DNA from: a virus
Lineage: Duplodnaviria; Heunggongvirae; Uroviricota; Caudoviricetes
IMG/VR virus record: IMGVR_UViG_2872678658_000002
DNA length: 45,439 nucleotides
Reading direction: 5' to 3' (one strand)
Shown piece after piece: positions 1-44,406 of this stretch (position 1 is its first letter; each line of letters starts with the position of its first letter). The translations under genes and the position numbers were made by a program. Under the pieces are notes generated by a model. The model searched no databases. It saw only the letters and a program-made list of their open reading frames with translations, and was not told the DNA's origin.

Positions 1-780
1 ATGAATTTTACGTTTACTGACTCTGGATACACTGAAACAAATAAAAACAATCCCCCAATCATATTCGTTCATGGATTTTTCATGAATAATGAAATGTTCA
101 AATACCAGTTTGACGAACTAAAAGAAAAACATAGAGTTGTTTGCATTAATGTTCGGGGATTCGATGCTCTCTCCGAAAAAATTGAGCCATTCTCGCTCTA
201 TGACATCGTTGATGACATTTTAAACGTCGCAGACTCACTACAACTGGATAAGTTTATTTTAGGTGGAATGTCGATGGGCGGATATATATCATTACGATTT
301 GCCCTGTCACATTCAGAACGTTTGTCAGGGCTAATCCTTATGGCAACTCAGGCAGAGCAGGATCCGCCAGAAATCGCGTCCAGTTACATGGAGTTATGTA
401 ATGGATGGCAAGACCCAATCATAAAGGAAAATATAATCAACTCATTATTACCCGTTTTTTTCGGAAATGATATCTCTGAAGCAGAGACATGGAGACAGGT
501 ATGGCTAGGCCATAAACCTGAAAATATCATAAAGGCCATGAATGCAATGCTGGAGCGCGACGACATTTCAGAAAGAATCCAGATAATCACAATCCCCACG
601 CTGATTATTCATGGTGCCAACGATATGGGGATACCATTAGAGAAAGCAATTCAAATGCACAAAATGATTGCGCATTCTAAGCTTGAAGTCATTCCCGACG
701 CAAATCATGCTCTAAATATCACTCATGCAAAGGAAGTAAATACAGCGATAAAAAACTGGCTGCAAAACAATCATATATAA
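1..780 (+). CDS. alpha/beta-hydrolase fold protein (putative esterase/lipase), AT-rich cargo gene
   Basis: 259-aa ORF with HGFF oxyanion-like motif, GxSxG-type nucleophile motif (GMSMGG), downstream Asp (HGANDMG) and His (DANHAL); low-GC codon usage unlike neighbouring phage genes. Confidence 0.6.
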   Translation: MNFTFTDSGYTETNKNNPPIIFVHGFFMNNEMFKYQFDELKEKHRVVCINVRGFDALSEKIEPFSLYDIVDDILNVADSLQLDKFILGGMSMGGYISLRFALSHSERLSGLILMATQAEQDPPEIASSYMELCNGWQDPIIKENIINSLLPVFFGNDISEAETWRQVWLGHKPENIIKAMNAMLERDDISERIQIITIPTLIIHGANDMGIPLEKAIQMHKMIAHSKLEVIPDANHALNITHAKEVNTAIKNWLQNNHI

Positions 781-818
781 AATTAATTATAACACATATT
801 AATTTCTTAATTATATTA

Positions 819-841
819 CGCCCGTAAAACTGTAGCGGGCG
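819..841. terminator. hairpin between convergent genes (cgcccg-11 nt loop-cgggcg)
   Basis: 6-bp inverted repeat seen directly between hydrolase stop (780) and minus-strand gene stop (982); no clean U-tract. Confidence 0.3.
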
Positions 842-981
842 TATGTTGTCACTCTGGTAGTGCCAGCCTCTCAATATCAGGTGCAGTTGATGTATCAACA
901 CGGTTCAGCAACACCCGATACTTTTTCCAGGCTTCCAGCAACGGGGTTTCTTCCTCCGTTGCATATACAGCTCACCTTTTT

Positions 982-1275
982 TCACCCACGATTAACCAAC
1001 AGCCAGACCAGCAGACACGCCACCACCGGCACAGCAAAATCCATCAGGCTTGCCACATCCCAAGCACGCGGATCAAAACCGCCCCACCACGGCATATTCA
1101 TTCGCTTGCCATGCCCGAACATTTCAATCCAGCGATATTCTGCCTGGGTATGTTCACGCGCAATGAAGAACGTACAACCGGCTATCGCTCCGTAAGCCCA
1201 GTTTCCGGTAAAAAGACCAACCAGTATCTGCGCAGCCACAGCACAAAGTGCATGAAGTAAGGGGCTTATATCCAT
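982..1275 (-). CDS. hypothetical small membrane protein (tail-fiber-distal cargo)
   Basis: 97-aa ORF with two hydrophobic segments, start 12 nt after upstream gene stop, same strand as tail genes. Confidence 0.45.
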   Translation of the reverse strand: MDISPLLHALCAVAAQILVGLFTGNWAYGAIAGCTFFIAREHTQAEYRWIEMFGHGKRMNMPWWGGFDPRAWDVASLMDFAVPVVACLLVWLLVNRG

Positions 1276-1287
1276 TATTTCCTCCTT

Positions 1288-1566
1288 TCAGCTCCATTCC
1301 CGAAGCGGTGTTTCCAGCTCCACGACATAATCAGAGAATACAGAAACATCAAACAAGTCATCAAGAATGCGAATGTTGACAAAATAACCATCATTCCGGA
1401 TACAGACAGGTTCTCCCTCTTCTGTTACCCCTGTTTCTGTGTAGGTGAAACCAATTTCATCAACTAACAGTTTATTCTGGAGGTCTTCATCTTCCGCCCA
1501 GCCAAGAGATGACAGGAAGGCCTTAAACTGCAGTTTGTCATGAAACTTCAAAGTTAAATCTTTCAT
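1288..1566 (-). CDS. small acidic protein translationally coupled to side tail fiber (possible fiber chaperone/accessory)
   Basis: 92-aa ORF; ATGA start/stop overlap with the stf stop codon at 1563-1566; D/E-rich. Confidence 0.45.
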   Translation of the reverse strand: MKDLTLKFHDKLQFKAFLSSLGWAEDEDLQNKLLVDEIGFTYTETGVTEEGEPVCIRNDGYFVNIRILDDLFDVSVFSDYVVELETPLREWS

Positions 1567-3632
1567 ACGACCTCTTTTAATTGCCTGTCATTTAATTCTT
1601 TATGCCATATGCGGAAATTGCGAATATGGCCAAACAGATGTCGTTCTCCAGTATTCGTCTGCCCTCCAAATCGGATATTTTTATCAGCGGTCACGCCATT
1701 ATATTCACAATAAACTTCATTAACCGCTTTACCATTTGTCACCACATGAAAGTGACCATCAGCTTTTGCAATACATCCAAATGTGGTTTTCTCTGCAAAT
1801 ACATCTGTCGCTGCGCTATTAACATACGAGCCTGAAGGGTTTGACAGACTCATATATAACTTACCACTACCTCTGTTGACTGCTGCAATTGCTGATTGCC
1901 CGGTATTGGCTGCTGCTATATCCCACACGCGGGGTGCGGCGTTTGGTGCAATATCCCAGTTTTTATGAATCTCAAGTAAAAAAGTAAATGGTAACTTATA
2001 AAGATTATTTCTGGTGGGGATACTAACCAAATCACTGGCTCTTGTCGTTGCGCTGCCTCCTGAAATAATAAATGATGATACACACGGCCCATTCTCTACT
2101 TGTGGGGTGGCAAGATAAATATAGTCACCAGATACTGTTGCCCCACCCTTCTCAGGAGAATACTGTATCTGAGAGCCTATTTTTAACTCACCATCAATTG
2201 CCTGAATCGTTGCCTCTGCAAAAATCCAGCCCGTGGTCTTATCCTTCCTGACTCGTGCCGTAATTCTGCCGGCAGCACCACCTGTCATATTAATTTCAAG
2301 CGTTTGCGTATCAATGTACGCATCGCCAAGAAAAGTTGTTGCACTTCCGTCATATTTATCAAACCGGATTCGCAACCTTACCTGCAGTTCTGTTTTAAAG
2401 CGACATGAGGTTGTCACGTATTTATTATCGCCTGAGACATCAACTGACTTTGTTGCAGCAATTGATGCCATATTAATAGCCGAAGTTTGCCCAACCAGAG
2501 AATCGTTGCAGACAAACTTTCCATAAGTAAAACCAAAACTATCCGTCCCGGTTTCGGGCACATCCATGTTTGATGACTTCCCCCAGCTGGCTGGACTTTC
2601 CGAATTGAGCATGTAGTTCGTTCTTTGTCCCTCAATAAGCAGGCCATCACACTCAAATCGCGGCTCATTAATTTCCGCCGTTTTCAGTTCGCCAGATTTG
2701 TTGATATATGTTGCCGTTGATGCGCGACTGAAATTAACCTGTTTATCACTGGCGACCTGAACCACATCGTCACCAATAGCTATTTTTTTATAGCCCGGAG
2801 AAAAACCCGCAATCATATCCAGTGAATCGTTAAACGGTATCCACACATCAGGCAGCGGCGGCACTATATTCGCATAGGGCTCTGCAGTCACTTCCGCTGC
2901 GGCTTCTGCGCGGTCTGCCGCCTTTTCAGCTCGTGTCGCTGCCGACAGAGCCTCATCCTTTTTCTGCCCGGCCTTTGTTGCGTCTGCTGCAGCCTCCCGC
3001 GCTTTTGTGGTGGCGACTCCGGCATTTTCAGCGGCTGACTCTGCATTACGGCGGGAAGCCTCTTCACTGTCTGCGGAGGCTTCTTCTGACGCACGGGCAT
3101 TTGTCTCTGAACGTTCTGCCGCTGTTGCTGCGTTTTGTGCGGCTGTTTTTGAAGAAGCTGCCGCTTTCGCGCTGTTACCTGCATTCGTCTCTGATGTTTT
3201 CGCCGCGTTCCTGGACGATGCCGCTGCTGTTTCTGATTTCTTTGCTGCCGCTGCGCTCTGAGAGGCGGCTTCAGCGTTGCGTGCCACATCCTCCACCATT
3301 TCCTGAAAACGGCGCAATGCCTCCGGCATGACATCATCTTCCGTCATGGCACCGAGAAAATCATTCAGCGTCCCCGGACTGGAACCTTCATAGACGGTAA
3401 TGGTCCCAACATGTGATGGCTGAGAACCCTCAATCCACAGGATGACGCTGTACTGACCATACTCAACGTCCATACTGTAACGCCCGGCTTCATCAGGATT
3501 TTCAGAGGCCACCGTGTTCACCAGTACCGTGGTGCTGTTACGCTTTGCCTTCAGTTGAATAGTGCAGTTCTGTATTGGTTTTCCCGCACCATCTTTCAGC
3601 ACACCTGAGATTTTTACTGCTGCCATATCCAC
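1563..3632 (-). CDS. stf: side tail fiber protein (lambda Stf-like N-terminus, divergent C-terminal receptor-binding region)
   Basis: 689 aa; N-terminus MAAVKISGVLKDGAGKPIQNCTIQLKAKRNSTT... matches remembered lambda Stf; Ala/Ser-rich repetitive stalk. Confidence 0.85.
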   Translation of the reverse strand: MDMAAVKISGVLKDGAGKPIQNCTIQLKAKRNSTTVLVNTVASENPDEAGRYSMDVEYGQYSVILWIEGSQPSHVGTITVYEGSSPGTLNDFLGAMTEDDVMPEALRRFQEMVEDVARNAEAASQSAAAAKKSETAAASSRNAAKTSETNAGNSAKAAASSKTAAQNAATAAERSETNARASEEASADSEEASRRNAESAAENAGVATTKAREAAADATKAGQKKDEALSAATRAEKAADRAEAAAEVTAEPYANIVPPLPDVWIPFNDSLDMIAGFSPGYKKIAIGDDVVQVASDKQVNFSRASTATYINKSGELKTAEINEPRFECDGLLIEGQRTNYMLNSESPASWGKSSNMDVPETGTDSFGFTYGKFVCNDSLVGQTSAINMASIAATKSVDVSGDNKYVTTSCRFKTELQVRLRIRFDKYDGSATTFLGDAYIDTQTLEINMTGGAAGRITARVRKDKTTGWIFAEATIQAIDGELKIGSQIQYSPEKGGATVSGDYIYLATPQVENGPCVSSFIISGGSATTRASDLVSIPTRNNLYKLPFTFLLEIHKNWDIAPNAAPRVWDIAAANTGQSAIAAVNRGSGKLYMSLSNPSGSYVNSAATDVFAEKTTFGCIAKADGHFHVVTNGKAVNEVYCEYNGVTADKNIRFGGQTNTGERHLFGHIRNFRIWHKELNDRQLKEVV

Positions 3633-3690
3633 TCCACAAAAAAGCCCGCCTGAACCGGCGGGCTGTCATAACACTGTGTTGCCTGGTTAA

Positions 3691-4290
3691 TCAGAATTTA
3701 TAACCGACACCAACGATGAAACCGTCAGTGCGCCAGTCGCCACTGCCGGAACCTTCATAAGCAATATCAATGGCCACGGATTCGGTCGGGTTAAACTGCA
3801 CGCCAGCCCCCCACGCCAGAGACGTGTCGCTGTAGCGACCGTCATCACTTCCGGTCAGCACATCGTCCGTTTTCCCCTTGTTATCAGTTACGCGGAGATA
3901 ATCCCCGGAGAAAGTCGACACACGGCTGTAAGCCACGCCCGCCATCGCATACGTGCTGAACCATTCATTCACGCGTACAGACGGCCCCGCCATCATGCTG
4001 AACCAGCGGTTACGCACGGAATCTTCATGCCAGCGGGTATCGCTGTAGTGCGTTTTTTGCTCATCCTCAGCATTGGCATAACTGAAGGACGTAATCAGCC
4101 CCAGCGCGTCCGTAAACTCATAACGGTATTTCACGTTAATCCCGTTCAGATTATCGCTGCCGGGAGCGTTCGTACGGGCATGAAGATACCCCGCGCTCAG
4201 TGTGGACTGATGTTCAGACGCCCATGCAGGCGCACCGGATACGGACAGACAGATGGCTGCGGACAAAATGGCTGCACATAATTTACGCAT
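3691..4290 (-). CDS. lom: Lom outer-membrane protein (Ail/Lom family)
   Basis: 199 aa, signal peptide, C-terminal ...GVGYKF beta-barrel terminus; position between J and stf as in lambda. Confidence 0.85.
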   Translation of the reverse strand: MRKLCAAILSAAICLSVSGAPAWASEHQSTLSAGYLHARTNAPGSDNLNGINVKYRYEFTDALGLITSFSYANAEDEQKTHYSDTRWHEDSVRNRWFSMMAGPSVRVNEWFSTYAMAGVAYSRVSTFSGDYLRVTDNKGKTDDVLTGSDDGRYSDTSLAWGAGVQFNPTESVAIDIAYEGSGSGDWRTDGFIVGVGYKF

Positions 4291-4357
4291 AATTACCTCT
4301 CGCTTTTCTGCAATAAAAAAGGCGCCATTTCTGGCGCCCGTATTGGGGTTATAAAAT

Positions 4358-7300
4358 TCAGCTAATCGTGATGCCTGCAGTGGCTTTCTTCATCACAACA
4401 ACCAGCAAATCGCTGATACTTGCTGTGGGATACCAGCCATTTACCCACCATGCTGATACAGAAAACTCCAGCGTCATGTCGCCGCGACCAGCAGGCATAT
4501 CAATAACACCACTGTAAACCAGCGTATTATCCATCGCGGTACGGTTATAAATTTCAGCACCGTTTTTCTTCACTATCAGGCGGCATGACGAATAAGTATC
4601 GCTGTTCTCCCGCTCATGTCTGGCACCGCTGAAAGCCACCGCCGGAATAACAATCTGCCGGTTAAACGGCTGATCGTCATAAACCCTGACGGTAATGGTT
4701 CCTGATGGCCAACGCTTCGGTGCACGGGAGTCACGAGGGAAAGCCTTACCCACTGTTTTAACGAGATCGCCTTCAATCTGGTTTGCAGACAGTTTCCCTC
4801 TGATGACACAGTTCTCGTTAATGGTGACATTATTGAGCGTGCCGGTATTCGCCGTGATGGCTCCACTGATATCCGCATTGCGGGCTGTCAGCCTGCCATC
4901 CGGCGTCAGGGAAAACGTCGGAGGATTGCCGGATGACGTGATGCTCACCGCAAACAGTCGCTTCAGGAACACGTCGTTCATGAACAGCTGATTCCCCTGC
5001 GCCACAAACAGCGGCGTGGTGTTGCCGTTCTCCGGGGTAATCATCGCAATGCGATCGGCCTGCAGCAGAATGTTACTCAGGGTCTGACCATCAACATCCT
5101 CAATCCCCGCACCAATCCCGGCCACATAGGGAATACCGTTTTTTGTTTTCTGCACCTTCAGCATATACATGGCATTCAGCTCATTGCGCGTGTCTGACTG
5201 AACCCGCTGGATTTGCTGTATGGTCACGGCCTGGTCACCCAGCTTTTTATCCGTGGTCGAGGTAATTTCACTCCCTTTTTTATCCACGTACTGGCGGACC
5301 TGTGCTATCTGTCGGGCGTTTTCTGACTGCCCCTGGCTGACAGTCTGTGAGATTTCACTGCTCACCCGGTCCACTTTCTGGCTCACCTGCGCGATGGCCA
5401 GTGTCTGATCCTCATTCTTTTTCGCAACCAGCTGCGTGAGGCTGTTTTCCGCCTTCCCGATTTTCCGGGTCACTTCTGCGATATCCGTGTCCATCCGCTG
5501 ACGGATATCTTCTTCCAGTTGCGTGACCTCCGTACGCAGCGCTGAAGCATCAATGCGCTCTTTCAGTGCCTGACCCAGAAGCGTCTCATCTATCAGCCCC
5601 CGGAAAATTTCCAGATACCCTTCACCATCATTGCTGGGCTGCCCGCTGGCTTCCACAAAAGCAGATTTTCCCACCAGGTTGACGCTTCGCACGTAAAACC
5701 AGAAATCCGTTCCCGGCTTAATCCGGCTCCCCTGGACAGTCCACTGACTGCCGGTCCCCAGATAACGGGCAGATTTTTCCACCTGTGCTGTGTTCGTGAT
5801 GCGTTTTTCTGAGAACCAGAATTCAAACTGTACCGTCGGGTCATACACCGCAAGACGCGGGACCGCCGTTATCTGAAAATACCCCGGCGTCAGCTCAATG
5901 GTGGCGGGTTTTGCAGGTGCGTTAATCCGGAACGATACCGACGCCGGATCGCCCTGCTGTCCCCGGGCATTTACCGCCCGGACCGTCAGCGTGTAACGCC
6001 CCAGCGCCAGCTGCCTGAAGCGGTAAGTGGTTTCCGCCGTCCGGGCCGTGCTGACCAGCCGCTCACTGCCGTCATCCGCTGTTACGGTCAGACGGAGCAG
6101 GAAGCTCACGCCCTTCACCACCTTCGGCGTGTCCCAGCGCGCCAGCACCTGATATTCCCCGCTGTCTGCGGTGACTTCGGCGGTCAGGTGCTGCACCGCT
6201 GGCGGCGTGACACCATTCACCGTGCCGCTCTGGTCGCCGTCAAAGTGCGCTCCGTTATCCACGATGGCCTCTTTTTCCGGTACATGCTGCACGGCGGTGA
6301 TGGCATACGTGCCGTCATCGTTCTCACGGATACTCACGCAGCGGAACAGGCGCTGGCGCAACGTCGGCAGCTTCAGTCCCCATACGCTGTATTCTGCAAC
6401 GCCGTCAGGAACACGGCTCACTTTTACCTTCACGCCGTCGGTGACGGACTGGACCTCCACGCTGACCGGATTCCCCTGTCCGTCAGCCAGGCTTATCAGC
6501 GTGGTGCCGGAGGATGGCAGCGTGATTTCACGGTCGAGCGTCAGTGTCCGCGTCTGGTTGTTCACCGCCAGCACGCGCCCGCCGATGCTGATCCCCGCAT
6601 AGTCATCATCACAGATTTCAATGACATCGCCCGGTACATGGCGAAGCCCTTCTGCACCCACGCTGAAGTCCACGGTCTGCGTTTCCAGCAGCTCCGTTTT
6701 AATCAGCCACAGCCCGGCGCGGTGTGCCTGCCCCCGGCTGGTACAGCCAAAGGCATCCATCTTCGTGACGTTACGACCGTAACGGGCAATGGCCTGCGTG
6801 TCCTCCACAAGCTCTGTCGCCGTCTCCCAGCCGTTATCCGGGTCAATCCAGTTCACCTCAACGGCATTATGGCGGTCTTTCAGGGCGCTGAAGCTGTAGC
6901 GGAACGGCGCGCCATCATCCGGCATCACCACATTACTGCGGTTATAGGTCCACACCTTATCCGACGGTCGGTCCTGCACGAATGTCAGCGTCTGCCCGTT
7001 CCATACCGGCATACAGCGCATCGCCGAGCAAAAATCACTGAGCACATCCCACGCCTTGCGCTGTGTGGTCAGGTACGCATTACAGGTGATGCGCGGCTCC
7101 GTGCCGCCAAAGCCGTCCGGCACTGACTGGTCGCAATTCTGGCCGATGACATACAGCGCCCATTTATCCACATCTGCCGCACCAAGACGTTTCCCCATGC
7201 CGTAGCGCGGATGGGTCAGCATATCCCACAGACACCAGGCCATGTTGTTGCTGTATGCTGGCTTAAACGTTCCGTCCCAGATACCGCTGTATTGCCGCGT

Positions 7301-27709: not shown

Positions 27710-27925
27710 TTACTCTCCCCGTGCAGCCTTACGCTTGTCTTCTCTGATTTTGAAGTACAGATTTGTCAGATAAGTCAGGAAGCCCAGAACCAGACTCCCA
27801 AGTACACCAATCGCAGCCCACTGTGACGGACTGACCTGATCAAGCCACTGTAAAAACCAGTAGCCAGCACTGCCTGCGGAGGTGCCGTAGGCAATGCCCG
27901 TTGAAATTTTGTCCATGGATTTCAT
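27710..27925 (-). CDS. S: phage-21-type pinholin S with dual-start motif (Met1/Met4)
   Basis: 71 aa [30 protein letters not shown]... matches remembered S21/EssD. Confidence 0.85.
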
Positions 27926-28047
27926 AGCCTCACCTCCGCAAATAACGGATGGCGTAGTTTTACACTGAGAAATGAAAGGGATTTGAAAAGAAAAGTAACC
28001 GGCTCATTTAAACCGTCTGGTCTGTTTCCTCCGGCTCTACAAAAATA

Positions 28048-28725
28048 ATGTCCATCATTTTTAATGGACACTATCGTATGAAACACCGGACCTGGATCAC
28101 TGAAGCTTTACGTCTTCACTTTGAAGAACATTTACCCCGGGTTGTGGCCGGGCGTCGCCTGGGTGTACCAAAATCAACAGTTTGTAGTATGTTCGTGCGC
28201 TTTCGGAGAGCTGGCCTTTCGTGGCCTTTGCCCGCAGGCATGTCGGAGCAGGAACTTGATGCCTGCCTTTACGGACAATTTTCCACGGTACCAGTCGTAC
28301 GTCCTGAAAGCACCGTTATATCCGAAGCCCCCGTGGTAAAAAAACGTCCCCGGCGGCCCAACTTCCCTTATGAGTTTAAAATCGCCTTAGTGGAGCAGTC
28401 ACTGCAGCCCGGAGCCTGTGTGGCGCAGATCGCCCGGGAAAACGGAATCAACGATAACCTGCTCTTCAACTGGCGCCATCAATACCGGAAAGGTGGCCTG
28501 CTGCCTTCCGGAAAAAATATGCCGGCACTGCTTCCCGTGACGTTAACGCCGGAGCCGGATAATAAAATCCCGGCCCCCGCACAGGAACCAGAGCAGATAA
28601 ATACACCGTCCGACAGTCTGTGTTGTGAGCTGGTTCTGCCGGCCGGAACTCTCAGGCTTAAAGGTAAACTGACGCCGGCGTTATTACAGACACTTATCCG
28701 CGAAATAAAAGGGAGCAGCCACTGA
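28048..28725 (+). CDS. tnpA: IS66-family accessory protein TnpA (HTH)
   Basis: 225-aa ORF, HTH-like segments; first of three IS66-type ORFs. Confidence 0.7.
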   Translation: MSIIFNGHYRMKHRTWITEALRLHFEEHLPRVVAGRRLGVPKSTVCSMFVRFRRAGLSWPLPAGMSEQELDACLYGQFSTVPVVRPESTVISEAPVVKKRPRRPNFPYEFKIALVEQSLQPGACVAQIARENGINDNLLFNWRHQYRKGGLLPSGKNMPALLPVTLTPEPDNKIPAPAQEPEQINTPSDSLCCELVLPAGTLRLKGKLTPALLQTLIREIKGSSH

Positions 28726-29072
28726 TGATATCTCTCCCTGCAGGTTCGCGTATCTGGCTGGTTGCAGGTATCACCGATATGCGAAATGGCTTTAACGGCC
28801 TGGCATCAAAAGTTCAGAACGTCCTGAAGGATGACCCGTTCTCCGGACACCTGTTCATCTTCCGCGGACGCCGGGGTGACCAGATAAAAGTGTTGTGGGC
28901 TGACAGTGACGGACTGTGCCTCTTCACCAAACGCCTGGAGCGGGGCCGCTTCGTCTGGCCAGTCACCCGTGACGGCAAGGTGCACCTTACTCCGGCTCAG
29001 TTATCCATGCTTCTTGAAGGTATCAACTGGAAGCACCCGAAACGAACGGAACGCGCTGGAATCCGCATATAA
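28725..29072 (+). CDS. tnpB: IS66-family protein TnpB (orfB)
   Basis: 115 aa, typical IS66 orfB size and sequence, start overlapping tnpA stop. Confidence 0.85.
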   Translation: MISLPAGSRIWLVAGITDMRNGFNGLASKVQNVLKDDPFSGHLFIFRGRRGDQIKVLWADSDGLCLFTKRLERGRFVWPVTRDGKVHLTPAQLSMLLEGINWKHPKRTERAGIRI

Positions 29073-29091
29073 CCCGTTGTAAAGTGAGGAT

Positions 29092-30663
29092 ATGGACACC
29101 TCACTTGCTCATGAGAACGCCCGCCTGCGGGCACTGTTGCAGACGCAACAGGACACCATCCGCCAGATGGCTGAATACAACCGCCTGCTCTCACAGCGGG
29201 TGGCGGCTTATGCTTCCGAAATCAACCGGCTGAAGGCGCTGGTTGCGAAACTGCAACGTATGCAGTTCGGTAAAAGCTCAGAAAAACTTCGTGCAAAAAC
29301 CGAACGGCAGATACAGGAAGCACAGGAGCGAATCAGCGCACTTCAGGAAGAAATGGCGGAAACGCTGGGTGAGCAATATGACCCGGTACTGCCATCCGCC
29401 CTGCGCCAGTCTTCAGCCCGTAAACCGTTACCGGCCTCACTTCCCCGTGAAACCCGGGTTATCCGGCCGGAAGAGGAATGCTGTCCTGCCTGTGGTGGTG
29501 AACTCAGTTCTCTGGGATGTGATGTGTCAGAGCAACTGGAGCTTATCAGCAGCGCCTTTAAGGTTATCGAAACACAACGTCCGAAACAGGCCTGTTGCCG
29601 GTGCGACCATATCGTGCAGGCACCAGTACCTTCAAAACCCATTGCACGCAGTTATGCCGGAGCGGGGCTTCTGGCCCATGTTGTCACCGGGAAATATGCA
29701 GACCATCTGCCGTTATACCGCCAGTCAGAAATATACCGTCGTCAGGGAGTGGAGATGAGCCGCGCCACGCTGGGGCGCTGGACCAGTGCTGTTGCTGAAC
29801 TGCTGGAGCCGCTGTATGACGTCCTGCGCCAGTATGTGCTGATGCCCGGTAAAGTCCATGCTGATGATATCCCCGTCCCGGTCCAGGAGCCGGGCAGCGG
29901 TAAAACCCGGACAGCCCGGCTGTGGGTCTACGTCCGTGATGACCGTAACGCCGGTTCACAGATGCCCCCGGCGGTCTGGTTCGCGTACAGTCCGGACCGG
30001 AAGGGTATCCATCCTCAAAATCACCTGGCCGGTTACAGCGGTGTGCTTCAGGCCGATGCTTACGGTGGTTACCGGGCGTTATACGAATCCGGCAGAATAA
30101 CGGAAGCCGCGTGTATGGCTCATGCCCGGAGAAAAATCCACGATGTGCATGCAAGAGCGCCCACCTACATCACCACGGAAGCCCTGCAGCGTATCGGTGA
30201 ACTGTATGCCATCGAGGCAGAGGTCCGGGGCTGTTCAGCAGAACAGCGTCTGGCGGCAAGAAAAGCCAGAGCCGCGCCACTGATGCAGTCACTGTATGAC
30301 TGGATACAGCAACAGATGAAAACACTGTCGCGTCACTCAGATACGGCAAAAGCGTTCGCATACCTGCTGAAACAGTGGGATGCACTGAACGTGTACTGCA
30401 GTAATGGCTGGGTGGAAATCGACAACAACATCGCAGAGAACGCCTTACGGGGAGTGGCCGTAGGCCGGAAAAACTGGATGTTCGCGGGTTCCGACAGCGG
30501 TGGTGAACATGCGGCGGTGTTGTACTCGCTGATCGGCACATGCCGTCTGAACAATGTGGAGCCAGAAAAGTGGCTGCGTTACGTCATTGAACATATCCAG
30601 GACTGGCCGGCAAACCGGGTACGCGATCTGTTGCCCTGGAAAGTTGATCTGAGCTCTCAGTAA
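29092..30663 (+). CDS. tnpC: IS66-family transposase TnpC
   Basis: 523 aa, N-terminal coiled coil/leucine zipper, Cys-rich zinc ribbon, DDE-like core. Confidence 0.85.
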
Positions 30664-30693
30664 ATATCAATACGGTTCTGACGAGTCGCTTAC

Positions 30694-30716
30694 AAAGAAA
30701 AACCCGCAAAAGCGGG
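30694..30716 (-). terminator. rho-independent terminator downstream of tRNA cluster, U-tract interrupted by IS66
   Basis: minus strand GCCCGC-TTTT-GCGGG stem followed by TTTTTCTTT; the TSD lies within the U-tract. Confidence 0.6.
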
Positions 30717-30924
30717 CGAAACGATATATACAGAAAGGAAAGCACTCTATCCAACAAACCACCCACAGTTAATCGGAATAAAAGCAGAGTGCTTATGAAT
30801 GATCGCCTGCTCGAAGGTTAGTATTTCTGCACAGCAATTTTGCAAAAAAAGGCGATCATTCATAACTTAAACGTCTTTCAGTCACTCCGGGATTTCCCAT
30901 CATCGCAGACTGAAAGACTCTAAC

Positions 30925-30999
<75 letters not shown>

Positions 31000-31002
31000 A
31001 TA

Positions 31003-31078
<76 letters not shown>

Positions 31079-31080
31079 AC

Positions 31081-31157
31081 TGGACCGCCACCGGGGACTC
31101 GAACCTCGCACACTCAACTTAAAGGGTTGACGCTCTTTCCTGATGAGCTAGTGGCGG
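31081..31157 (-). tRNA. tRNA-like gene with atypical anticodon loop CCUUUAA (anticodon UUU if canonical; C at position 33)
   Basis: foldable cloverleaf with 7-bp acceptor stem, D and T arms (T-loop UUCGAGU), abuts next tRNA with 1-nt spacer. Confidence 0.5.
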
Positions 31158-31158
31158 C

Positions 31159-31234
31159 TGGTGGCCCTTGCTGGATTTGAACCAGCGACCTGGCGATTAT
31201 GAGTCGCTCGCTCTCACCACTGAGCTAAAGGGCC
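31159..31234 (-). tRNA. tRNA-Ile2-like (anticodon CAU, ileX/ileZ type)
   Basis: 76 nt, anticodon loop ACUCAUAA; body far closer to remembered ileX than to elongator tRNA-Met. Confidence 0.75.
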
Positions 31235-31334
31235 GGGCGCAGGATAATAACGTTACGAAATCAATGTTGCAAGCATTCAAAAATCACCCTTATCTCCTCC
31301 ACTAGCGCATTCACCATGTCTATCCGAGATAAGT

Positions 31335-31364
31335 GGCACAAAAAACCCGCTTGTGGGCGGGTTT
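31335..31364 (-). terminator. tR-prime-like hairpin downstream of Q (bidirectional terminator structure)
   Basis: A6-cccgc-ttgtgg-gcggg-TTTTGTTT; reads as terminator on both strands; lies between Q stop and tRNAs. Confidence 0.55.
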
Positions 31365-31370
31365 TGTTTG

Positions 31371-31428
31371 CTTTTGCCATCACGTACAAAATCGGCAAAA
31401 TATCAGATTTGCATGAAATATATGCCTT
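31371..31428 (-). promoter_or_regulatory. expected late promoter pR-prime/qut region (position-based)
   Basis: 58-nt AT-rich interval between Q stop and terminator hairpin; no confident -10/-35 assigned. Confidence 0.3.
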
Positions 31429-32124
31429 TCAATCTACTTTTGCAACACTTTGCTTTGAAAATGCCGCCTTTTGTTTTGAACGTGTTCTCATTACAAACAA
31501 TAAAGCCTCACTATCAAGTCGGTGAAAAATGTGTTTCATTGCAACCCAGTGACGAGTAAATGTTTTGGACCAGTTTTTAGTTGTCACTCCCGCCAGTAAT
31601 GCCAGCTCCTGGTATTCATAACCTTCCCCACCAAAAAGTTCTGCTTTTACTGCCTGCGCCGCCAGCCAGATTAATTTTTTCAGGCGTTCCTGCGTTTTCC
31701 CTGCAATTTTTCTGGTACCGGATTGAGTATTAAATTCATTCCACGCCCACTGTGTTATCGCGATCTGATATTCCCAACAAATACTCCCGCTGTAACACCA
31801 CAACAACCAGGCTTTATGATGTTCTTCAAGAGACAGAACAGCCCGCCGCCACGATGATGTCGAAAACTCAACCGGACTGACCAGAGGTATTGACGTCCCC
31901 TTCGCCAGCGATTGCTTTCCCGGGATTGGTGGATTATCCCGCGTTATCATTTTTCCAGTCACTTCATCGCGGTACCGGATTTTTTTTCGCCTGTAACGCC
32001 CTGTATCGAACATGGCATTCTCTTGCCAGGCTTCAAGCTGACCTTTTGTTGCCCCACTCAAATCAGCGGTGGCGATAATGAGCTGCTCACGCACAAACTG
32101 TAAATACTGGTTATTCATGCGCAC
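31429..32124 (-). CDS. putative late-gene antiterminator Q (QuuQ-like)
   Basis: 231 aa; position immediately upstream of terminator hairpin, tRNAs and lysis genes; resembles remembered E. coli prophage Quu proteins. Confidence 0.5.
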   Translation of the reverse strand: MRMNNQYLQFVREQLIIATADLSGATKGQLEAWQENAMFDTGRYRRKKIRYRDEVTGKMITRDNPPIPGKQSLAKGTSIPLVSPVEFSTSSWRRAVLSLEEHHKAWLLWCYSGSICWEYQIAITQWAWNEFNTQSGTRKIAGKTQERLKKLIWLAAQAVKAELFGGEGYEYQELALLAGVTTKNWSKTFTRHWVAMKHIFHRLDSEALLFVMRTRSKQKAAFSKQSVAKVD

Positions 32125-35040: not shown

Positions 35041-35727
35041 TCACTCCTTCTCTTCTTTTCCGTAGTGGAGTTGGCCAATTTTGATAAGAGGGCGTCCCTG
35101 AGATTTGCGGTGTAGATTGGTATCGCGCAGAGAATACACACAGCCACAATATTCCTGCTGATAGAATTTTTCGCGCTTGCTGATTTCAATCATACGGGAC
35201 GAGCCGCCCTGCTTGCGCCAGTTATAATCCCAGTACACCATACCCGGATAATGCGCAACAGCTCGCCGCCCACACTCGTTAACCTGCTGCATATTTTTCC
35301 AGCGTGAAATGCCCAGTGAACTGCTGATCACACTGAAACCATTTTCAGCAGCGTACAACGCTGTCCGCTCAAAACGCATGTCAAAACACATGGTACAACG
35401 GATCCCCCTCTCAGGCTCCCATTCCATTCCTTTGGCACGTTCAAACCAGTTGTCGGTGTCGTAATCAGCATCGATAAACGGCACGCCGTGTTGTTCAGCA
35501 AAGCGAATATTTTCATCCTTACGAATTAAATACTCTTTCTGAGGATGAATGTTCGGGTTGTAGAAAAAGATGGTGTAGTCGATTCCCGAGGCCTGAAGCG
35601 CCTCCATCACTTCACCGGAACATGGAGCACAGCAAGAGTGCAGTAGTAGTTTGTTTGCCCCGTTTGGGAGCTCCAATTTAGGCCGTTTGAAATCAGCAAT
35701 AGTCATAAATATTTTTATTGGGGTCAT
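35041..35727 (-). CDS. DUF208/QueH-like protein (putative epoxyqueuosine reductase, Fe-S)
   Basis: 228 aa with [11 protein letters not shown] motif plus CTMCF and YCGC cysteines characteristic of QueH family. Confidence 0.65.
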
Positions 35728-36346: not shown

Positions 36347-37423
36347 TTACCCCCTGAAGCCCGGCGGAATTTCGTTATCCGGTTCAGAAATATGATTCAC
36401 ACAACGCTGGTTGTTCGTGCCGCTTACCGGGAGCAACCAGGGGTTCTCAAAATTCCGGTCTGGTCCAAAAAACGTCGTCGCTCGCTGAACAAATTCCGTT
36501 CCCGTTTTCCCGGTAGCCGCCAAGTATCTTGCGTAACGCCTCACGCCATCCAGCATGGCCTCTGGTGGCACCCCCTCGCGTAATCTGGCCTTCCAGGCAC
36601 TGAAAGCGGATTTCTTCGGGTTTGCCCCAGCACGCAACGGGTACTCCCGCCAGACCTGTTCGAACACATCCGGATAATCCACTCGTCCCACAGACTGCCC
36701 GGTGTTTTCCGGGACTACCCGATCGGCTTCCCGCTGAATGGCGGAATCGGCTTCGGGCTGCTGCAGTTGGTGTGATTGCTCCGGCCTTGCGGTCATCACC
36801 TGCTGCACAGCGCCCGAATCGGCTTTCAGCGCATACGCTGAATCGGCTTCCGGTGTCGTGCCTGCTGGCTGACCAAGATTGACGGTCTGAACATCCCCTG
36901 CCTGGTTCGTGGCGTTTTTTACGCCATGGACCATAGTGTTTTGATCTTCTTGATCTGTATCTTTATCTGTATCTTTATCTGTCGTGACTCGTCGTGACAT
37001 GTGCGTGACATTTCGTGACGCGCCGTGACAATCGCCATTTTGTTCCCGCTTTCTTTCCCTCTCTCGCTGCGCCCTCTTGCGCTCTGCAGGAGATTTTGCG
37101 GTTTGCGAAATATTGCCGTTGTCCTCTTTAAGCACCTGGCGTTTTTCCCATCCAGTGATTAAATCACCATCAAGTACCCGCCCCTGCATCGTCTGCAAAA
37201 TTGAATCAATTACCTCTTCTGTCACGTCGAGCGCACTTGCCAAATCTTCTGTCGTGACATCAATGTGACCTCGCGTGACATTTCGTGACGCGCTCACCAA
37301 GAGGTGGATATACACTGCCATCACTGTTGCAATTGGCTGCCCTGACACCCTGGCAATTGTTCGCCACTTAGGGTCATTTGGCATGTCATGCCATAATCTG
37401 AGCCAGGCGTTAGCCATACTCAC
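36347..37423 (-). CDS. replication initiator (lambda O-like role) containing its own iteron origin
   Basis: 358 aa; N-terminal winged-helix-like region; two iteron arrays and an AT-rich tandem repeat lie inside the coding sequence. Confidence 0.6.
   Translation of the reverse strand: MSMANAWLRLWHDMPNDPKWRTIARVSGQPIATVMAVYIHLLVSASRNVTRGHIDVTTEDLASALDVTEEVIDSILQTMQGRVLDGDLITGWEKRQVLKEDNGNISQTAKSPAERKRAQRERERKREQNGDCHGASRNVTHMSRRVTTDKDTDKDTDQEDQNTMVHGVKNATNQAGDVQTVNLGQPAGTTPEADSAYALKADSGAVQQVMTARPEQSHQLQQPEADSAIQREADRVVPENTGQSVGRVDYPDVFEQVWREYPLRAGANPKKSAFSAWKARLREGVPPEAMLDGVRRYARYLAATGKTGTEFVQRATTFFGPDRNFENPWLLPVSGTNNQRCVNHISEPDNEIPPGFRG
36983..37029. repeat. iteron array 1: five CGTGAC repeats at 10-11 bp phasing
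   Basis: repeat starts at 36983, 36993, 37004, 37014, 37024; preceded by (TCTGTATCTTTA)x2 and two GATC sites. Confidence 0.7.
37253..37289. repeat. iteron array 2: four (C/T)GTGAC repeats at about 10-bp phasing plus one inverted copy at 37221
   Basis: catttcgtgacgcgc is shared verbatim with array 1. Confidence 0.65.
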
Positions 37424-43177: not shown

Positions 43178-43381
43178 ATGAGCAGCTTATTTTTAACCGA
43201 AGATGAATTGCTAATATTAACGGGCTGCAAATATGCAAGCCACCAGCGAAAATGGTTAATGGAAAACGGGCTTCCGTTCTATACCAATCGTAGTGGCAAA
43301 CCGATTGTCAGCCGGGATCTATTTACCTGCAATAAAACTTTACCACCACGCGAGGTAGAGCCGAATTTTGGTGCGATCTGA
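43178..43381 (+). CDS. xis: putative excisionase
   Basis: 67-aa ORF whose stop overlaps the integrase start (TGATG). Confidence 0.5.
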   Translation: MSSLFLTEDELLILTGCKYASHQRKWLMENGLPFYTNRSGKPIVSRDLFTCNKTLPPREVEPNFGAI

Positions 43382-44406
43382 TGGGAAGACGAAGGAAAAA
43401 TCCTGAACACGAAAAATTACCTCCAAATGTATACCCAAATAAATATAGTTATGTATGGAAACCAACATCCAGAGAATCTGTAACACTAACCGCCATCAAG
43501 GATGGTTTAGCTGCTTTATGGAAAAAGTATGAGGAAACTGTAAATAATCGCGATCGTGCAATGACATTCGGTCGCTTGTGGGAAAAATTCCTCGCCAGCG
43601 CCTATTACAGTGACCTCAGTCCAAGAACACAAAAAGATTATCTGCAACATCAAAAAAAGTTGCTTGCCGTATTCGGTAAGGTGCCGGCAGATTCCATAAA
43701 ACCAGAACACATCCGTCGATACATGGACAAGAGAGGGGAACAGAGTAAAACGCAAGCCAACCATGAAAAAAGCAGTATGTCCCGCGTTTACAGTTGGGGG
43801 TATGAGCGAGGGTACGTGAAAGCTAACCCATGTGCAGGTGTAAGTAAATTCAAGGCCAAAAACCGCGAACGATATGTAACCGACAAAGAATACCAGGCAG
43901 TATTAAGCGTTGCACCTCTTCCTGTTTTTATCGCAATGGAAATTGCCTATCTGTGTGCAGCGAGGGTTTCCGATGTGTTATCGCTGAAATGGGAGCAGAT
44001 TGGAAACGACGGGATCTTTATCCAGCAAGGGAAAACAGGAAAAAAACAGATAAAAGCATGGAGTCCACGATTACAGGCGGCGATCGAAAAAGCAAAACAG
44101 TTACCAACATCCGCCTATGTAATCAGCAATCAATACGGCAACCGATATATGTACAAAGGCTTTAACGAAATGTGGGTAGATGCAAGAAATCGTGCTGGAA
44201 AAATTTCAGGTATTTTAACCGACTTCACCTTTCATGATCTGAAGGCGAAAGGAATTTCAGACTATGAAGGAAGCAGCCGGGATAAGCAACTTTTCTCTGG
44301 TCACAAAACCGAAGGGCAAGTGCTAATCTATGACAGGAAGGTTAAAGTTTCACCAACACTTGATGTCCCGTTACCTGAAAATATTCCAAGAAAATATTCC
44401 AAGTAA
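43381..44406 (+). CDS. int: tyrosine integrase
   Basis: 341 aa; C-terminal catalytic region (R...HDLK...VLIYDRK with Tyr); adjacent to tRNA 3-prime end. Confidence 0.85.
   Translation: MGRRRKNPEHEKLPPNVYPNKYSYVWKPTSRESVTLTAIKDGLAALWKKYEETVNNRDRAMTFGRLWEKFLASAYYSDLSPRTQKDYLQHQKKLLAVFGKVPADSIKPEHIRRYMDKRGEQSKTQANHEKSSMSRVYSWGYERGYVKANPCAGVSKFKAKNRERYVTDKEYQAVLSVAPLPVFIAMEIAYLCAARVSDVLSLKWEQIGNDGIFIQQGKTGKKQIKAWSPRLQAAIEKAKQLPTSAYVISNQYGNRYMYKGFNEMWVDARNRAGKISGILTDFTFHDLKAKGISDYEGSSRDKQLFSGHKTEGQVLIYDRKVKVSPTLDVPLPENIPRKYSK

Follow-up and report, generated by a model that had tools for sequence, protein, structure and literature searches.

ISCro1 was first named from Citrobacter rodentium ICC168, which has 24 copies of it (PMC3072379), and the copy of EC958 is stated to be 2,824 bp long (PMC8764528). 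In Stx2a phages of O157:H7, another insertion sequence (IS), IS629, commonly lies between stx2 and the lysis genes, as seen in genomes that were assembled from induced phage DNA (PMC4587872). Antitermination of the Q82 type is processive and resistant to both intrinsic and Rho-dependent terminators (PMC12360218). Here, we analyzed a stretch of 45,439 nucleotides, IMG/VR virus record IMGVR_UViG_2872678658_000002 (the whole stretch is referred to as the window), which is a lambda-like E. coli prophage that adjoins mtfA and tRNA-Ser(CGA) and carries its late genes on the minus strand. The window contains a complete ISCro1 element, a member of the IS66 family, which is inserted with an 8-bp target-site duplication into the T-tract of an intrinsic terminator, between the antiterminator gene Q with its adjacent tRNA cluster and the lysis and structural genes. 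The explanation that we favor, and consider likely as a whole, is that ISCro1 inserted recently, left the terminator intact, is read through by Q-modified RNA polymerase, and is near-neutral for the prophage.

The element occupies positions 27995-30693 on the plus strand (2,699 bp). The features of the insertion are as follows:

27987-27994: left copy of the target-site duplication, AAAGAAAA, single-copy in IS-free genomes
27995-28020, plus strand: left terminal inverted repeat (GTAACCGGCTC...), matching the reverse complement of the right end at 18/26 bases
28048-28725, plus strand: tnpA, 225 aa, Pfam HTH_Tnp_1; identical to WP_001339397.1 of the genome VTB96815v
28725-29072, plus strand: tnpB, 115 aa, Pfam TnpB_IS66 (E = 4.7e-40)
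29092-30663, plus strand: tnpC, 523 aa, DDE transposase, Pfam DDE_Tnp_IS66 (2e-102)
30668-30693, plus strand: right terminal inverted repeat (...GAGTCGCTTAC)
30694-30701: right copy of the duplication, reading TTTTCTTT on the minus strand, where it forms the kept terminator T-tract
30702-30717, minus strand: intrinsic-terminator hairpin GCCCGC-UUUU-GCGGGU, which ends the tRNA cluster; -10.9 kcal/mol, within the conserved empty-site module

Position 27995 is the first base of the element, where the sequence reads GTAACCGG / GTAACCGGCTC..., and position 30693 is the last (...CGCTTAC / ...GAGTCGCTTAC). The two ends are imperfect inverted repeats that start with GTAA, and 18 of their 26 terminal bases are the same (GTAACCGGCTC... 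compared to GTAAGCGACTC...). Imperfect terminal inverted repeats with a 5'-GTAA start are reportedly part of the description of the IS66 family by Han et al. in 2001. All three transposase open reading frames (ORFs), tnpA, tnpB, and tnpC, are full length; tnpA and tnpB share one base, 28725, and both are located upstream of tnpC on the same strand, which is the IS66 layout. The DDE domain of TnpC (PF03050, 2e-102) spans residues 186-472 and is accompanied by zf-IS66, LZ_Tnp_IS66, and IS66_C. Copies named 'IS66-like element ISCro1 family' by PGAP match the element at 99.7-99.8% identity, the assignment to ISCro1 thus being made by proxy, via PGAP-labelled copies and not via the ISfinder reference sequence. 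Of 5,426 complete E. coli genomes, 3,018 harbor copies of this PGAP-labelled kind; the nucleotide identity to a copy from Citrobacter sp. is 94.7%.

The length of 2,699 bp, the tnpA-tnpB-tnpC order, the GTAA termini, and the 8-bp duplication are all in line with ISCro1, whereas the window copy differs from the common ISCro1 variant by a clustered 7-nt patch in tnpC (29755-29785, 30003, and 30015), with two resulting substitutions in TnpC, M222L and S232G. This patch is found neither in the VTB96815v copy at the same site, which is the common variant, nor in copies elsewhere, and it suggests gene conversion between IS copies after the insertion. The element is apparently functional, judging from its intact ORFs, its numerous near-identical copies, and an insertion site confined to one lineage. 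That ISCro1 genuinely inserted here and duplicated 8 bp of its target is close to certain. A preliminary description of this stretch had proposed an IS66-family element with such a duplication, and the Pfam domains, the terminal repeats, the exact duplication, and the empty site described below bear this out.

Both copies of AAAGAAAA directly abut the element, and the duplication is exactly 8 bp long, with no match at the ninth base. The empty site was reconstructed by deleting the IS together with one repeat copy and keeping 600 nt on each side (1,200 nt in total). The reconstructed sequence is present, 100% identical and unbroken, in E. coli F95 (NZ_OY754453.1), and 395 of the 5,426 complete genomes contain the empty site in contiguous form, with at least 80% of it covered at a single location. 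Because the 8-mer is single-copy in such IS-free genomes, it is a true target-site duplication; the alignment to IS-free relatives that the preliminary description had called for thus yielded an exact empty site with one copy of the 8-mer in F95. The possibility that the 8-mers belong to a longer native repeat was rejected, given that the repeat ends at 8 bp and occurs in one copy where the IS is missing. Three other full ISCro1 copies are likewise flanked by 8-bp duplications (GATCAAAC, ACACTAAC, and CCGTAATA).

Conversely, the occupied junction is present in only 3 of the 5,426 complete genomes, all of them from poultry: the avian-pathogenic E. coli (APEC) strain IMT5155, DE17 (duck), and VTB96815v (chicken). 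An occupied site in three genomes, compared to an empty site in 395, points to a recent, lineage-restricted event. An alternative source of such junctions is the assembly itself, i.e., a repeat-collapsed IS that was misplaced by the assembler. This is vanishingly improbable because the window and three complete genomes, each assembled independently, share the same junctions, and because both the duplication and the empty site are exact. The window is ~100% identical to DE17 from 17995 to 42994. In the tail region, its identity is 96-97% to IMT5155 and ~96% to the short part that DE17 covers, and this mismatch to the named carriers implies that the window comes from a further (fourth) carrier or a recombinant.

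An intrinsic terminator is taken here to be a GC-rich hairpin with a U-tract of 7-9 nt directly after it. The terminator that was hit has a 6-bp stem (5 G-C pairs) and a 4-nt loop, followed by UUUUUCUUU, and this holds in the empty and occupied states alike. The IS entered at the distal eight bases of the T-tract, and in the occupied state the hairpin is followed by TTTTTCTTT ahead of the IS, with a T-tract of 9 nt kept. Because the eight duplicated base pairs are the T-tract itself, the unit of terminator and tRNA genes remains intact. Therefore, the preliminary description was correct in placing the IS in the T-tract of the terminator downstream of the tRNA cluster (hairpin 30717-30702 and its T-run were both found), whereas its claim that the terminator is restored upon removal of the IS does not hold: the duplication regenerates the T-tract, so that hairpin and 9-nt T-tract persist. 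The location past the last tRNA fits a predicted terminator at the end of a tRNA operon. It should be noted that terminator-like sites are not enriched in this region (6, compared to 5.3 +/- 2.3 in shuffled sequence).

The position of the window copy, exactly within a terminator T-tract, would be expected if ISCro1 recognized terminator hairpins or T-tracts. This type of targeting was examined in 35 independent ISCro1 left flanks, of which Escherichia sp. MOD1-EC7003 supplied 34 and Citrobacter one. The flanks show only a weak consensus, approximately G/C-N-T-N-A-A/T-N-C, which AAAGAAAA fits poorly, and no GC-rich hairpins or T-runs were seen adjacent to any of the 35. In addition, ISCro1 copies in related prophages occupy the D-E interval of the head genes and the xis-int interval; such independent insertions elsewhere indicate that the event is common. 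Targeting of terminators or hairpins was rejected on the basis of these 35 flanks, and we consider it highly improbable. Given the weak consensus, the missing association with hairpins or T-runs, and the other prophage sites, the element seems to have landed at the terminator by chance and then to have been tolerated in an intergenic position. In the draft genome of MOD1-EC7003, ~30 contig ends stop in the ISCro1 left end, which indicates a massive expansion of ISCro1 in this strain.

To place the insertion in the late transcription unit, the following features of the flanking region are relevant:

31429-32124, minus strand: antiterminator Q, phage-82 type (PF06323, 8.6e-92)
31417-31445, minus strand: pR'-like late promoter TTGCAA-17-TATATT, overlapping the end and stop codon of Q; conserved with phage 434
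31342-31365, minus strand: tR' analogue, hairpin AAAACCCGCCCACAAGCGGGTTTT plus T-run, aligning with the annotated phage 434 terminator
31244-31272, minus strand: predicted promoter-like site TTGCAA-17-TATTAT, 10 nt before the first tRNA (9/12 match)
30925-31234, minus strand: tRNA cluster, Ile (CAU), Lys (UUU), Thr (UGU), and Gly (UCC), from ARAGORN, Rfam, and PGAP labels
27710-27925, minus strand: S21-type (class II) holin with the dual start MKSM, the first late gene past the IS (PF04971, 1.4e-35)

The Q protein is 77% identical to Q of phage 82 and 74% identical to Q of phage 434; in a search of solved structures, it gave only a chance-level match, to a phage lysin. The region has the organization of a late operon of the phage 82 type, i.e., a Q82-family gene and a late promoter with a terminator within ~100 nt of it, which makes for a short leader RNA, ahead of the genes for lysis and morphogenesis on the same strand. 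The alignment with phage 434, in which the post-Q terminator is annotated in the curated record, extends over the promoter hexamers, the initially transcribed region, and the hairpin of this terminator. By this alignment, the pair at 31445-31342 after Q is the pR'/tR' analogue. The terminator that was hit by the IS had been considered as tR' and was rejected in favor of the hairpin 31365-31342, per the phage 434 annotation and alignment. Thus, the view that the hit terminator is the gate of late transcription has to be abandoned, because the tR' analogue sits elsewhere, 64-87 nt past the Q stop codon; the hit terminator is the second in the late leader, with the tR' analogue ~0.65 kb upstream.

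Past Q, the order on the minus strand is: pR'-like promoter, tR'-like hairpin, second promoter-like site, four tRNAs, inverted repeat, terminator, TTTTCTTT, IS, TTTTCTTT, and holin. In the window, unlike in the late regions of phages 82 and 434, tR' and the holin are separated by the four tRNA genes, which have a promoter-like site of their own, and by a second terminator. The leader between the pR'-like promoter and the tR'-like hairpin (31340-31413, minus strand) is ~73 nt long and is probably a 6S-RNA-like terminated late leader. It has weak, sub-threshold Rfam matches to isrK (22.7 bits) and isrJ (24.5 bits), which are Salmonella prophage small RNAs; besides these, the Rfam scan returned four tRNAs only. 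The Ile2 tRNA (CAU) of the cluster is called Met by ARAGORN. The inverted repeat between tRNA-Gly and the terminator (30800-30870, minus strand) has a 16-bp stem with the core ATGAATGATCGCCT ... AGGCGATCATTCAT and a folding energy of -27 kcal/mol over 96 nt; in one phage record, a small ORF is annotated there. The PPompW prophages of O157 share the part with Q and tRNA-Ile/Lys, and the phages vB_EcoS-689R5 and vB_EcoM-606R7 share the entire Q-tRNA module, the module of vB_EcoS-689R5 being IS-free.

The ORF layout agrees with the preliminary description in that the IS lies between Q and S-R-Rz-Nu1...J, with its ORFs antisense to the late operon. Downstream of the element, the ribosome-binding region of the holin, its dual start, and the leader are intact: the holin start codon (ATG at 27925) is located 69 bp from the IS end, with a 61-nt leader after the repeat. 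The course of events that we envisage is as follows. In an avian-pathogenic lineage of E. coli, ISCro1 would have jumped into a lambda-like prophage and, with the duplication from an 8-bp staggered cut that is usual for its family, landed ~0.7 kb inside the Q-dependent late unit, 69 bp ahead of the start codon of the holin. Once the prophage is induced, three obstacles would face Q-modified RNA polymerase: tR', the terminator of the tRNA cluster, and 2.7 kb of antisense IS sequence that is not translated; a processive polymerase that resists intrinsic and Rho-dependent termination would be expected to read through the IS. The IS would then be a tolerated passenger of the moron-rich Q-S interval rather than a switch. 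Because Q-modified polymerase is processive and resistant to terminators and Rho, a near-neutral insertion is the most likely outcome, and we infer, as fairly probable, that late gene expression is little affected.

The closest parallel is IS629 in the Stx2a phages. There, too, an IS lies within the Q-dependent late transcript, past Q and the morons and before the lysis genes; it is the main variation among otherwise identical prophages, and its carriers are still induced, with their DNA recovered in phage preparations. The two cases differ in that IS629 is a 1.3-kb element of the IS3 family, which in PST1-1 splits a predicted ORF and not a terminator T-tract (PMC4587872).

A different outcome would be a polar block, in which the untranslated antisense IS RNA, its internal hairpins, and convergent transposase transcription cut late expression, leaving the prophage defective in lysis and packaging with its tRNAs still expressed. 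Several observations weigh in this direction and against a near-neutral insertion. First, the antisense strand of the IS contains two moderately stable structures of a hairpin with a T-run:

28037-28074, minus strand: AT-rich 13-bp hairpin plus TTTTT inside the IS, overlapping the tnpA start codon (-14.1 kcal/mol)

and a second one at ~28590-28567 (-11.4 kcal/mol). The former resembles a terminator, and might act as one on antisense read-through; together with convergent transposase transcription, such hairpins could lower late expression. Second, ISCro1 reduced downstream transcription at afaA (PMC8764528). Third, IMT5155 gave no plaques on MC1061, either spontaneously or with nalidixic acid (PMC9701743). 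Fourth, the insertion is common to three complete genomes of poultry strains from different hosts and places, the carriers coming from chickens and one duck, and the two records with a country naming China and South Africa; this spread is in keeping with a prophage that has ceased to kill its host and has been inherited vertically for a long time. Finally, there are other lesions among the carriers: the O-like replication gene of VTB96815v has a 10-bp deletion (window 36981-36990; the gene is intact in the window), the K gene is flagged as frameshifted in IMT5155, and a sister copy has an integrase that bears a frameshift flag from PGAP.

On the other side, the plaque screen used one indicator strain, and 20 of 29 strains likewise gave no plaques (PMC9701743). 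The other lesions would explain non-production equally well, and neither the window nor VTB96815v shows damage to the late genes, which bear no pseudogene flags. Q proteins accompany RNA polymerase and render it resistant to intrinsic terminators. Antitermination of the Q82 type is processive in the face of intrinsic and Rho-dependent terminators (PMC12360218), and the IS629 precedent comes from induced phages (PMC4587872). A further point against a polar block is that the region holds no more terminator-like sites than shuffled sequence does. The IS-bearing prophage is ~43.5 kb long, which is inside the lambda packaging limits, assuming a left boundary at ~900 that is placed only by the onset of similarity to IMT5155. 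We therefore view the polar block, with its defective prophage, as doubtful, and significant polarity of the insertion as such as unlikely. The defect in lysis or packaging that the preliminary description envisaged is speculative, since Q82-type processivity, the IS629 precedent, and the size of ~43.5 kb make read-through likelier. An extended form of the same idea is that the IS is a 'grounding' lesion, which attenuates Q-dependent transcription before the holin, disarms lysis and virion production, and spreads vertically in the avian-pathogenic lineage. This is quite improbable; if true, the host would retain the terminator-insulated tRNA operon, QueH, and a hok-like toxin of a phage that does not kill. 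On the sense strand, the hairpin 28037-28074 could hide the tnpA start codon from read-in transcripts.

The opposite effect, namely late genes under IS-derived control, had also been suggested. In this case, an outward promoter at the left IS end, or a hybrid -35/-10, would drive S-R-Rz and the structural genes without Q. Outward and hybrid promoters are known in other IS families (PMC8764528); none came from the window sequence. A relaxed hexamer scan for an outward sigma-70 promoter within 200 nt of the left IS end gave a best match of 8/12, and a consensus scan found none, so that a promoter in this position was rejected. Moreover, a hairpin with a T-run lies ~50 nt before the exit from the IS on the same strand, constitutive expression of holin and endolysin would be lethal, and ISCro1 located upstream of afaA lowers promoter activity in reporter assays (PMC8764528). 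With a best outward match of 8/12 and the lowered activity at afaA, the suggestion finds no support in the sequence, and we consider it scarcely credible.

The insertion of ISCro1 is known and already annotated biology, visible in the RefSeq annotation, and it is well documented that prophages diversify and decay through IS insertions. The useful outcome of the analysis is a set of corrections: (i) which terminator was hit, (ii) its survival, and (iii) the true site of the Q-controlled promoter and terminator. If a late block were true, it would be one more case of IS-driven prophage domestication and could help explain the undetectable phage release by strains of the IMT5155 type.

The remaining gene content of the window is that of a lambda-like prophage. 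On the minus strand, the gene order is S, R, Rz, cos, Nu1 to J, followed by lom and a tail-fiber gene; the lysis set consists of the S21-type dual-start holin, a lysozyme, and an Rz gene, and the cosN of lambda, GGGCGGCGACCT, is present upstream of Nu1. Intact ORFs were found for Nu1 through J, S/R/Rz, the O-like gene, the cI/cro-like genes, and Q, and cosN is likewise intact. The earlier characterization of the prophage as gene-complete thus largely stands, with the caveat that PGAP flags the integrase of the sister genome as frameshifted. This integrase (43381-44406) is 'frameshifted' according to PGAP in VTB96815v and Ec-U3, and intact, with 341 aa, in the phage record ON470583. The 341-aa ORF keeps the catalytic-tyrosine region GHK...LIY, with the motif HDLK compared to HxLR of the lambda type. 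When the end of tRNA-Ser was compared to the left part of the window for an attachment-site repeat, there was no exact match of at least 12 nt in 1-5000 or of at least 10 nt in 600-1700.

The nin-like region contains a gene for the epoxyqueuosine reductase QueH, a tRNA-modification enzyme (35041-35727, minus strand), and in relatives a hokD-type toxin gene is annotated nearby. Between VTB96815v and the window, a recombinant patch of tail genes at 9-14 kb holds ~180 of the 203 mismatches. Beyond J, the window (1-5800) has lom, a gene for a 689-aa tail-fiber protein, and an alpha/beta-hydrolase gene, whereas IMT5155 and DE17 have a truncated tail-fiber gene followed by sitABCD; judging by these gene contents, the IS-bearing prophage exists in at least two distal-end variants.

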